This document shows positions 30,001 to 33,000 of a stretch of 61,765 bases of DNA, in pieces; positions within the stretch are counted from its first letter, which is position 1, and every line of letters starts with the position of its first letter. The stretch lies in the sequence record AP004402. One strand, written 5' to 3'. A program made the position numbers. The DNA is from Stx2 converting phage I.

Positions 30001-33000
30001 GATGTATTGCTGGTTTCTTTCCTGTTCATCCAGCAGTGCCAGCACGGTAGCCGGGTTAGCCTCTGCTATGAATTCAGCGTTTGCATAAGCCTGATCATCT
30101 GATTCAATCAGGCAGTTAACATGACATTCCGCAATCACGCCACCGGGTTCTCCTTTCCATTTTTGGCAAACAAAAACTCCTGTTAAATTGCCGTGCTGGT
30201 TAACAGATGTATGCCCTACGATGTAGCTTCCTTTAGTTGCTTTCTCTGCCTTTTCACGCAGTGCCTGATAATTAATTTCGCTCACTTCGAACCTCTCTGT
30301 TTACTGATAAGCTCCAGATCCTCCTGGCAACTTGCACAAGTCCGACAACCCTGAACGGCCAGGCGTCTTCGCTCATCTATGGGATCGCCACACTCGCAAC
30401 AATGAGTAGCAGATGGGGCATTACTATCGGATTTGTATTTTTGCAGGGAGAGATTGCGCTGCAATTCTTCGATTTCAGCGGCGTTGTCGATGATATCTGC
30501 CATTTTCCTTTCCTTCAGGCATGAAAAAAGGAGCCGAAGCTCCTTTGGTTTTAGAATTCGAATTGCCTTGCCCGCAGGCTTTTCAGCATTGGTCTGGCCC
30601 GCTGAACTACGAAACTCGACTGGTCAAGCCGTGCCGCCTCTCTCAGTAGCACATCTCTGTTCTTCGTCACCATGTAGATGGTCTCAAACGCAATGTCATA
30701 CAGCTTGTTCGTGTATGAGGAGTTCAGCTCTTTCATGATCGGATACAGGTGTTTGCTGAGGTCCTGGGCTTTTTCCATCCAGAGTTGCATGTAGCAGAGG
30801 AGGATGATTTCCTCGTCTGTGAATTGTTGCTGTGGTTCTGCTTGTGCCGACTGCATGTTGCGAAGTTTCTTTTCGCACTCGATGAAGTATCTGCGTATCT
30901 GTCGGCCTTTTTCGTTACGCTCTACCATCGCCGTTTCTTTGGCTGTATCGAGGGTAAGGTGGTAGTCTTTTTTCCCTCGCCCATAACCTATTTCCCGTTT
31001 CTGGGAAATAGCTATATAGTCCTGATTTTCAACGAATCCGTACTCTTCAATACGTTCTGTAATCCACGATGCAAAGCGTTTACCTACTCCAAGAAAAGTA
31101 TGTAAATCACGGGCATTAACGAGAAGAGTGGTTTCGTTGGCGATAGTGCCGTTGAATACGGGGATGCGTTGACTGGTCATGATGACCTCCTTATTTGTTT
31201 AGTTTATAACCGCCAGTTAGTAGCTGGCGGTCGGGTGTCAACTGAGCCAAATAAGAAGCTCTGGGCATATTCCCCTTGCGGGTGTTGTATTACGCCTCTC
31301 CACCCGACCTTTGTACGGATGTAACTATGCCAAATTGCAGGCATAAAAAAGCCGCAAAGCTATCGGGTGCGGAGACCGCTTATTTGTTCAGTGCGGTCAG
31401 TATGCGATAGCTCTGGAGGATTTGTCAATCAGCGGAATATTGATGAACGGGTAACGGTAAATGCCTCATCCAGAAAATTAACGCAAATTCGCATCGCAAA
31501 CTTGCGTTAATTATCTGAAATATCAAGTTAAATCCCCTTAAATGTTTGGGGCACTATTGGGGCAAAATGTGGTTGTTTGGGGCACTATTGGGGCAAAATG
31601 TGGTTGTTTGGGGCATATTTGGGGCAAAAAAGAACGTATAAAGAACGGTGTAAAATTGATTTCTTCATGGTCAAAATGAGGTGTAACAGATTGAAAAATA
31701 TATGCTCTTGGACGATCTTCGGTAATTCTGTGTTTTTAATGCTTCATGGTTTCAACATGTCTAAGGATATGGTTTATCATTTTGAAAAATATAATTTTAT
31801 TTCATCCTCCTGGTCACTTTGGGGCACGTCTGGGGCACGGGCATTAAGGACATTATTCAACATGGCAACTTGAGTCACGCTGCACTCAGGCATCCATGCA
31901 CCATAAACATTGTAGACCATGCTGGCGCTGGAGTGCCCCATCTGTGATGCAATAAATGTCGGGTTTGCTCCGGAAGATAAAGCCCAGCACGCATAGGTAT
32001 GGCGTGACTGATACGCTTTACGGGATCGGATACCCGCTCTTTTTATTGCTGAATCCCATGTCGCTCCGATGGAGCTTACCGCGTAGTTAATACCCGCCTT
32101 GTGATTCTTGCGAACGATTTGCGGACAGAAAACAAAAGTGCACTCGTGCAAAATTGTTCTTCCGTACTCGCGTAATTGAACAGTGATCTGATGCTGCCTG
32201 CTAAGACGAGTAAGCATCGCCTGGTTTTTAAGTGCTTCAATTGCTGGTGCCAGAAGATGTATAACCCGGTTAGTGCCTGCGTCGGTCTTTGGTAGCGTAA
32301 AATCACCTATTTTTGTAAAATTTCGTCGCACTGTTATCGTGCCAGCTTTCAGGTCGATATCCTCCCATGCAAGTGCGGCAATTTCACCGTGTCGCATCCC
32401 TGTAAAAACAGCCACTGTCCAGAGGTTTTTGGTCTGTTGATGATGGCAGGCATCAATGAGACGGCTAAACTCATCTCTGGTCAGTGGATCCGGCACTGGT
32501 TTTGATTTCCTCAGCGGTGTTATTGAATTAAACGGGTTTTTCTCCAGATACCCGTTTTCGGCGGCAAAGCTGAACATTCCGGCTGTTGTTGTCATGTAAT
32601 AGTTCACTGTGGGTACGGTTCTTCCTTTTCGGGACGTGCTGGTTTTCCTGCTTCCCTTTTCCCCGGTCAGTAAATCTTTCCTGATAAACAGCAGATCTTC
32701 TTTTGTAATCGATGACGCCAGCCTGCCAGGACCAAGCCTCGGTAGCATATTTTTCATCACTGATTGATAACGATTTAAGGCGTTACTACCGATTTCCATT
32801 GCTTTCAGAGTAAGCCATTTCTGTGCCAGTTCACCGACGGTGATATCTTTTTTTACCAGGCCAAATAGCTTCAGGTTAGGTGAGTCAGGGAATCGATCGG
32901 CATAATCAAACGTTCCTGTTCTGATTGCAAAGCAGACCGAAGCCCTTAACTCACCAGCGATCTTTCTGTTTTTCGGTGTATCGGGCACGCGAAGATTTTC

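Follow-up and report, generated by a model that had tools for sequence, protein, structure and literature searches.

The DNA analyzed here (the window, 61,765 nucleotides of Stx2 converting phage I, sequence record AP004402) contains the phage attachment site, attP, of a tyrosine integrase (Int), and a short motif, TGGGGCA, recurs on both sides of its crossover. These motifs are very probably the arm-type binding sites of Int, with a tandem array of 31-bp units forming the P arm and a further motif pair within the 3′ end of int forming the P′ arm of attP; from the sequence comparisons laid out below, a probability of about 0.85 is attached to this reading. Positions 31100..31900 are 100% identical to Escherichia phage EDL933-Stx and to phage 933W, and the name 933W is used below for the phage and its integrase. 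933W is the Stx2 phage of E. coli O157:H7 EDL933 and the reference Stx2 phage. The prophage-ordered GenBank record and the window are circular permutations of each other, so that the attP junction lies uninterrupted in mid-window. Integration of 933W into wrbA, and its excision from there, determines which E. coli strains carry the toxin genes, and with attP known in full, from arms to core and their spacing, one can state the smallest fragment required for integration vectors and excision assays and call prophage boundaries correctly. The parts of attP that bear on this reading are the following, with motif starts counted from the core centre, 31752:

31546..31564, plus strand: candidate P-arm pair 1 (TTGGGGCA N3 TTGGGGCA), motif starts −204 and −193
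31577..31595, plus strand: candidate P-arm pair 2, identical to pair 1, motif starts −173 and −162
31608..31626, plus strand: candidate P-arm pair 3, core-proximal, motif starts −142 and −131
31743..31761, no strand assigned: attP core TTCATG / GTTTCAA / CATGTC, with the overlap (31749..31755) flanked by inverted CATG
31819..31837, plus strand: candidate P′-arm pair (TTGGGGCA N3 CTGGGGCA), motif starts +69 and +80, within the 3′ end of int

Tandem Repeats Finder reports the array at 31543..31629 (period 31, 2.8 copies, 96% matches, score 158), and on direct reading unit 1 (31545..31575, TTTGGGGCACTATTGGGGCAAAATGTGGTTG) is identical to unit 2 (31576..31606), while unit 3 (31607..31630, TTTGGGGCATATTTGGGGCAAAAA) is a partial, slightly diverged copy. 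An original prediction, made from the sequence alone, had described a 31-bp unit repeated twice in tandem with a degenerate third copy and had noted further motifs in the int 3′ end; the repeat structure is as it described, and the motifs in int are TTTGGGGCAC (31818..31827) and TCTGGGGCAC (31829..31838), which span 31818..31838 and encode A-P-D-V-P-Q. Its placement of the array upstream of int was mistaken: int lies on the minus strand, and the array therefore falls ~150–230 bp downstream of the stop codon. Each 31-bp unit carries two TGGGGCA motifs 11 bp apart, and the next pair follows 31 bp on. The six P-arm motifs start at 0, 11, 31, 42, 62, and 73 bp, equivalent to 0, 1.05, 2.95, 4.0, 5.9, and 6.95 helical turns, a spacing that by computation sets all six on one face of the helix, and all eight motifs around the core share a single orientation. 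Exact TTGGGGCA occurs seven times in the window, always within the two clusters and always on the plus strand, and GGGGCA-N5-GGGGCA occurs at 31548, 31579, 31610, and 31821 only. Same-strand GGGGCA is found 8 times in 300 bp against an expectation of 0.07 (Poisson 1e-14), a figure to be read with the fact that six of the eight derive from duplication and are not independent.

The crossover position can be read directly from lysogens. When attP is compared with attR (L004) and attL (L005) of wrbA lysogens, identity between phage and host is limited to GTTTCAA (31749..31755), with diagnostic phage/host mismatches at 31748 and 31756; the heptamer equals the 7-bp “attR core” annotated in NC_000924. 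Strand exchange at these positions lies inside the interval 31181..31776 in which the core had been expected, and the comparison with attL and attR that had been suggested as a check places the wrbA crossover between the two motif clusters. The core is only 22 bp from the int stop codon, so that a P′ arm must fall within the int coding sequence, and the fourth motif pair is found there, exactly where this arm is expected. The cores of 933W and of three other attB specificities have the form TCAY(R)-7 bp-(Y)RTG, which suggests that TCAY is a common core-type half-site of 933W-like integrases despite their differing overlaps.

The same junctions yielded two minor observations. In wrbA lysogens, phage DNA gives wrbA a new 5′ end (31745..31780, minus strand; 58..636 in L005), in which the int stop codon shares bases with an ATG at 31780..31778 (ATGA); the lysogen product is 192 amino acids long and begins with MINHILRHVET followed by WrbA, so that the first 17 native residues are replaced. 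The 212,414-bp record NZ_CP124742.1, from an EDL933 assembly, contains the intact attP junction and has four matching places; it has the appearance of a concatemer assembled from excised or replicating 933W DNA rather than of a chromosome or plasmid.

Conservation of the P′ pair was followed through 75 genomic loci with Int homologues (22–70% identity), 54 of which were examined for the pair. The pattern G[CT]CCC[AG]-N5-G[CT]CCC[AG] stands at the int 3′ end in 47 of the 54, over a range of 28–70% Int identity, with the most distant carriers in marine gammaproteobacteria (28–32%), and in most loci without the exact pair a close variant, for example TGTCCCC/TGCCCCC, is present. When translated, the pair reads A-P-x-x-P-H/Q and shows fixed synonymous positions (GCC in 38/38, CCA in 40/43, and CCC in 41/41), as does a preceding TTT (34/34) that lies outside the search pattern; the Leu, Ala, Val, and Ser codons beside it vary freely, with 3–6 codons each. 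In L048, L053, L061, L076, and the Rac prophage, the int stop codon precedes the pair, which is thus non-coding. Since the pair is kept whether translated or not, and since its synonymous sites are fixed, the alignments indicate that it is under selection as DNA and not as protein. This conclusion is backed by a control within int itself. An inverted ATGGGGCAC (31932..31940, minus strand), considered as a ninth site, encodes the conserved M-G-H of the catalytic domain, but homologues differ in the Gly codon, revealing no constraint at the DNA level; it was rejected as an arm site, and its resemblance to the motif is probably coincidence.

For the P arm, an exact-pattern DNA scan of viral contigs was used; the relatives obtained by protein search of IMG/VR were nearly all prophage contigs that end just after int and hence have no second arm. 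Among the matches listed, 44 of 80 lie precisely where the gene of an Int homologue has its 3′ end, and several of the others are P arms. The Stx1 phage Stx1_699 (Int 68% identical, different attB) has ATGGGGCA/ATGGGACA within the int 3′ end and a P pair ~120–130 bp inside attR, with the order GGGGCA/GGGACA identical in both arms. An intact attP is available in L176 (Int 70% identical), which reads two pairs, core, a site resembling the integration host factor (IHF) consensus, and P′ pair, and six further loci (L209, L221, L235, L194, L186, and L229) are attR-type arms with 2–5 motifs. No second arm that could be used was obtained from Klebsiella phage 2 LV-2017, Yersinia phage YP3, or vB_EcoS-673R7, in which the record is cut at another point or the layout is different. 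Nine P arms with four different cores align without gaps over the ~130 bp from the core-proximal pair to the core, in the order arm pair, second direct repeat, block GCGCTCyTGGrCGaTcTTt, A/T tract, and TCAY(R)-type core, and it is pair 3 of 933W that aligns with the single P-arm pair of the relatives. The elements between arm sites and core in 933W are:

31629..31647, plus strand: second direct repeat, two copies of AAAGAACG with 11-bp spacing, abutting the arm-site array
31684..31696, minus strand: tentative IHF-consensus-like site TTTCAATCTGTTA, one mismatch, between the arm sites and the core
31704..31741, plus strand: conserved block GCTCTTGGACGATCTTCGG followed by the A/T tract TTTTTAATG, 8–45 bp left of the overlap

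The block and the A/T tract are kept in all nine P arms and with all four cores, and Xis, Fis, IHF, and Int are candidate binders. AAgTTcG-like repeats occupy the place equivalent to the second direct repeat in Stx1_699, L221, L194, and L235. IHF-consensus matches as good as that at 31684..31696 occur in the window at chance frequency (51 found vs. 58.6 expected). On the other side of the core, between it and the P′ pair, relatives have AATCAnnnnGTTA and 933W only TTCAAnnnnATA.

P-arm motifs number from 2 to 6 across relatives, and from this range the apparent ancestral minimum, on comparative grounds, is a single P pair together with the P′ pair (2+2). Two units are present in Sakai VT2, the Stx1-converting phage, and most O157 lysogens; the O104:H4 and O43 prophages also have two, the outermost motif having decayed to GGGGCG, and three units are confined to EDL933 and a few relatives. 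Pair 1 belongs to the unit duplicated in the 933W lineage and has no separate counterpart in the Sakai, O104:H4, and O43 phages. Because units 1 and 2 are exactly identical and most relatives have two units, the third unit fits a recent 31-bp duplication in the 933W lineage that retained helical phasing. The three-unit form of the tandem repeat appears to be a recent expansion of an older two-unit arrangement. The six GGGG tracts were also considered as a G-quadruplex, a reading rejected on the finding that relatives have only two tracts in the P arm.

The genes concerned are the following:

31777..33111, minus strand: int, tyrosine integrase with an N-terminal arm-binding domain; probable start ATG at 33087, giving 436 amino acids
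33140..33439, minus strand: xis, DUF1233-type excisionase (Pfam PF06806, 1e-30), directly upstream of int
30551..31180, minus strand: ant, antirepressor gene with AntA and P22_AR_C domains, flanking attP

Pfam assigns to Int a catalytic domain and an N-terminal Arm-DNA-bind_2 domain (PF12167, formerly DUF3596; 6e-26). An AlphaFold2 model of residues 1–119, computed from 28 input sequences (predicted local distance difference test score, 84.7), predicts strands at 10–13, 16–23, and 26–35 and a helix at 38–57. Sequence and profile searches returned no link from this domain to lambda Int or to any PDB chain, and its relation to known arm-binding domains is visible in the predicted fold only. Members of the IntBPP-1 subgroup, which includes BPP-1, a Stx2a phage, and Gifsy-2, are defined by a DUF3596/PF12167 arm-binding domain, a further criterion of the subgroup being a β-stranded insertion between strands 2 and 3 of the catalytic domain, and those named are termed putative integrases (Smyshlyaev et al., 2021; PMC8138268); 933W Int has the arm-binding domain, with three predicted strands and one helix. 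Distant homologues that keep the motif show 41–49% identity in the N-domain vs. 22–30% in the other Int domains, and in homologues with N-domain identity of 27–28% the motif is absent.

The layout corresponds closely to that of phage lambda. In lambda as in 933W, the tyrosine integrase is heterobivalent, its arm-binding domain being small and N-terminal; motifs unrelated to the core are repeated in both arms; the P′ sites are adjacent repeats, spaced by about one helical turn, that adjoin the 3′ end of int or overlap it; the distal P site is at about −130 to −140; xis lies upstream of int; and the overlap measures 7 bp (PMC4880445). The same computation applied to lambda places P1 at −141, P2 at −111 (inverted), P′1–3 at +55, +65, and +76, and the stop codon of int at +81. 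Several marks of lambda-type sites are found in 933W as well: the core-unrelated motif lies on both sides of the crossover within ~250 bp (six at −204 to −131, two at +69/+80), the arm-binding domain is a separate N-terminal one, a directionality factor gene (DUF1233 xis) accompanies int even in distant loci, and the motif is retained across the integrase family even where cores have diverged (47/54 P′ loci, the P arms, Rac, and BPP-1). 933W differs from lambda in the motif itself (TGGGGCA vs. AGTCACTAT, the arm-site consensus used to scan lambda), in an N-domain without detectable sequence similarity, in sites that are all direct and paired with no inverted P2-like site seen, in a P′ pair that lies wholly within the int coding sequence, 40–60 bp before the stop, and, for the family, in a variable number of P sites (2 to 6). 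The arrangement is the expected lambda-type solution and involves no new mechanism.

Two more distant systems show related layouts. BPP-1, with an Int 26% identical to that of 933W and an annotated attP comprising 27 bp of tRNA-His, carries TTTGCCCCAAA/TTCGTCCCAAA within the 3′ end of int and, ~120 bp beyond the core, two copies of TTTGTCCCAAG; it has the pair–core–pair order of 933W around the annotated attP. Rac of E. coli K-12, for which excision through IntR and XisR has been documented (PMC4632033), encodes an Int homologue whose N-domain is 43% identical to that of 933W, together with a DUF1233-family Xis, and has GGGGCA motifs beside the intR stop in attL and three more 110–145 bp from the attR core; it differs from 933W in its ttcA core, in the uneven spacing of the three P-arm motifs, in a P′ pair that lies outside the coding sequence with 12-bp spacing, and in that the conserved GCTCTTGGACG block is not evident. 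Tn916 Int (1bb8) and the Yersinia HPI integrase (3jtz) have arm-binding domains with only 12% sequence identity to that of 933W, have other DNA motifs, and belong to other subgroups. GGGRCA pairs at 11–12 bp spacing are offered as a prediction of the arm-site consensus of the IntBPP-1 subgroup. The candidate integrase arm sites of the original prediction thus gain support from the arm-binding N-domain of Int and from pairs at the same distance in relatives, Rac, and BPP-1, and we infer from these that the protein bound is Int.

The repeats might instead be binding sites of the DUF1233 Xis, a reading that we regard as improbable. It draws on the fact that the sites of recombination directionality factors are typically direct repeats, arranged in tandem within a single arm, on the co-inheritance of Xis with Int in nearly all loci that keep the motif, and on the binding of an attR fragment by Rac XisR (PMC4632033). 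Co-occurrence of the two genes does not discriminate, as they travel together, and because xis genes accompany int, conservation alone cannot say which protein binds. In lambda, the P arm is where the Xis sites X1, X1.5, and X2 have been described (PMC4880445), whereas the motif pair is found in both arms in 933W and its relatives, including inside or beside the int 3′ end, and is not confined to P. Moreover, Rac XisR shifted the probe AttR but not AttM (PMC4632033), and when the primers were mapped, AttM (L167, 2169–2459) proved to hold all three Rac GGGGCA motifs; in this homologous system, at least, XisR would appear to leave a motif-bearing fragment unbound. A different direct repeat, the two copies of AAAGAACG at 31629..31647, abuts the array and may be a better candidate for Xis sites than the GGGGCA motifs. 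Assigning the motifs to Xis would also leave the arm-binding domain of Int without arm sites. The N-domain is the best conserved part of Int where distant homologues keep the motif.

Neutral origin of the array by replication slippage, with no function of its own, is very unlikely. In its favor, the first two units do not differ, and the array is shorter by one unit in the majority of related phages (Sakai, O104:H4, O43, and most O157 lysogens), but this applies to the extra unit only; from BPP-1 to 933W, the motif pair keeps its place, orientation, and spacing even though the arms cannot otherwise be aligned, and the P′ pair is conserved at synonymous sites. Scarcely any weight is given either to the idea that the repeats are operators for a regulator of ant, or an RNA or small-open-reading-frame feature of the ant–int intergenic region. 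The array does lie ~370–450 bp upstream of ant, with a promoter-like site and an element matching the Rfam family sRNA-Xcc1 in between, and open reading frames at 31542..31679 and 31577..31873 overlap it. These reading frames, however, span the att core and would be split on integration, and no Rfam family lies over the array, in which no terminator, sib-like element, or known RNA family was found. In relatives, the P-arm pair stands beside unrelated genes (dinI in Stx1_699, ynaE in Rac, and bbp1 in BPP-1), and its constant distance is to the core, not to any gene.

If the TGGGGCA motifs are arm sites of Int, as we favor, the reaction may be pictured on the model of lambda. The N-domain of Int (approximately residues 9–57, three β-strands and a helix) would dock on the motifs, while the core-binding and catalytic domains of the same protomers would hold TTCATG/CATGTC around GTTTCAA. 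DNA bending, probably by IHF, together with Xis during excision, would bring the arms back to the core and allow four Int protomers to bridge arm and core sites, with the P′ pair and one P pair supplying the four arm sites; this bridging pattern and the roles given to IHF and Xis are modeled on lambda. The presence of three P pairs in 933W would follow from the recent duplication of one 31-bp unit, and since 31 bp is about three helical turns, the extra P sites would remain on the same face of the helix.

Full-text searches, which did not extend to the original 1999 paper, found arm-type sites described neither for 933W Int nor for wrbA-integrating phages or PF12167 integrases, although an earlier mention in older literature is possible; the literature searched also yielded no experiment on specific binding of the motif by the Int N-domain. 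One GenBank record, that of the Stx1-converting phage, annotates a repeat region over the array with no stated function, and a search for literature behind this annotation found nothing relevant. A GGGRCA pair at the int 3′ end with a second pair ~200 bp away across the core offers a practical signature that could locate attP, attL, and attR of IntBPP-1-type prophages from sequence alone and could guide domain swaps in which the arm module is kept and core specificity is changed. It is conceivable, though doubtful at present, that the GGGRCA pair is an arm code common to the whole IntBPP-1 subgroup (BPP-1, marine gammaproteobacterial prophages, Rac, and Stx phages) and allows cross-talk between prophages. 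If so, co-resident prophages of E. coli O157 (for example, 933W at wrbA together with the Rac-like CP-933R at ttcA) could bind each other's arms, the Int of one could titrate, help, or block the excision of another, and P-arm copy number (two vs. three units) could tune the frequency of Stx phage integration and excision.

Several features of the window lie apart from these questions. The ant leader contains a full-length match to sRNA-Xcc1 (RF02221) at 31221..31309 on the minus strand (69.1 bits, gathering score 53, E 9e-12), preceded by a promoter-like TTGACA-18-CATACT at 31428..31399. Just left of the array is an imperfect palindrome, TTAACGCAA-N14-TTGCGTTAA (31479..31511), that is slightly changed in the O104:H4 and O43 phages. 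At a greater distance, a period-20 repeat, CATCCCCCAAAACGAGGGA, is present in four copies at 45649..45726 and resembles the iterons of lambdoid replication origins.

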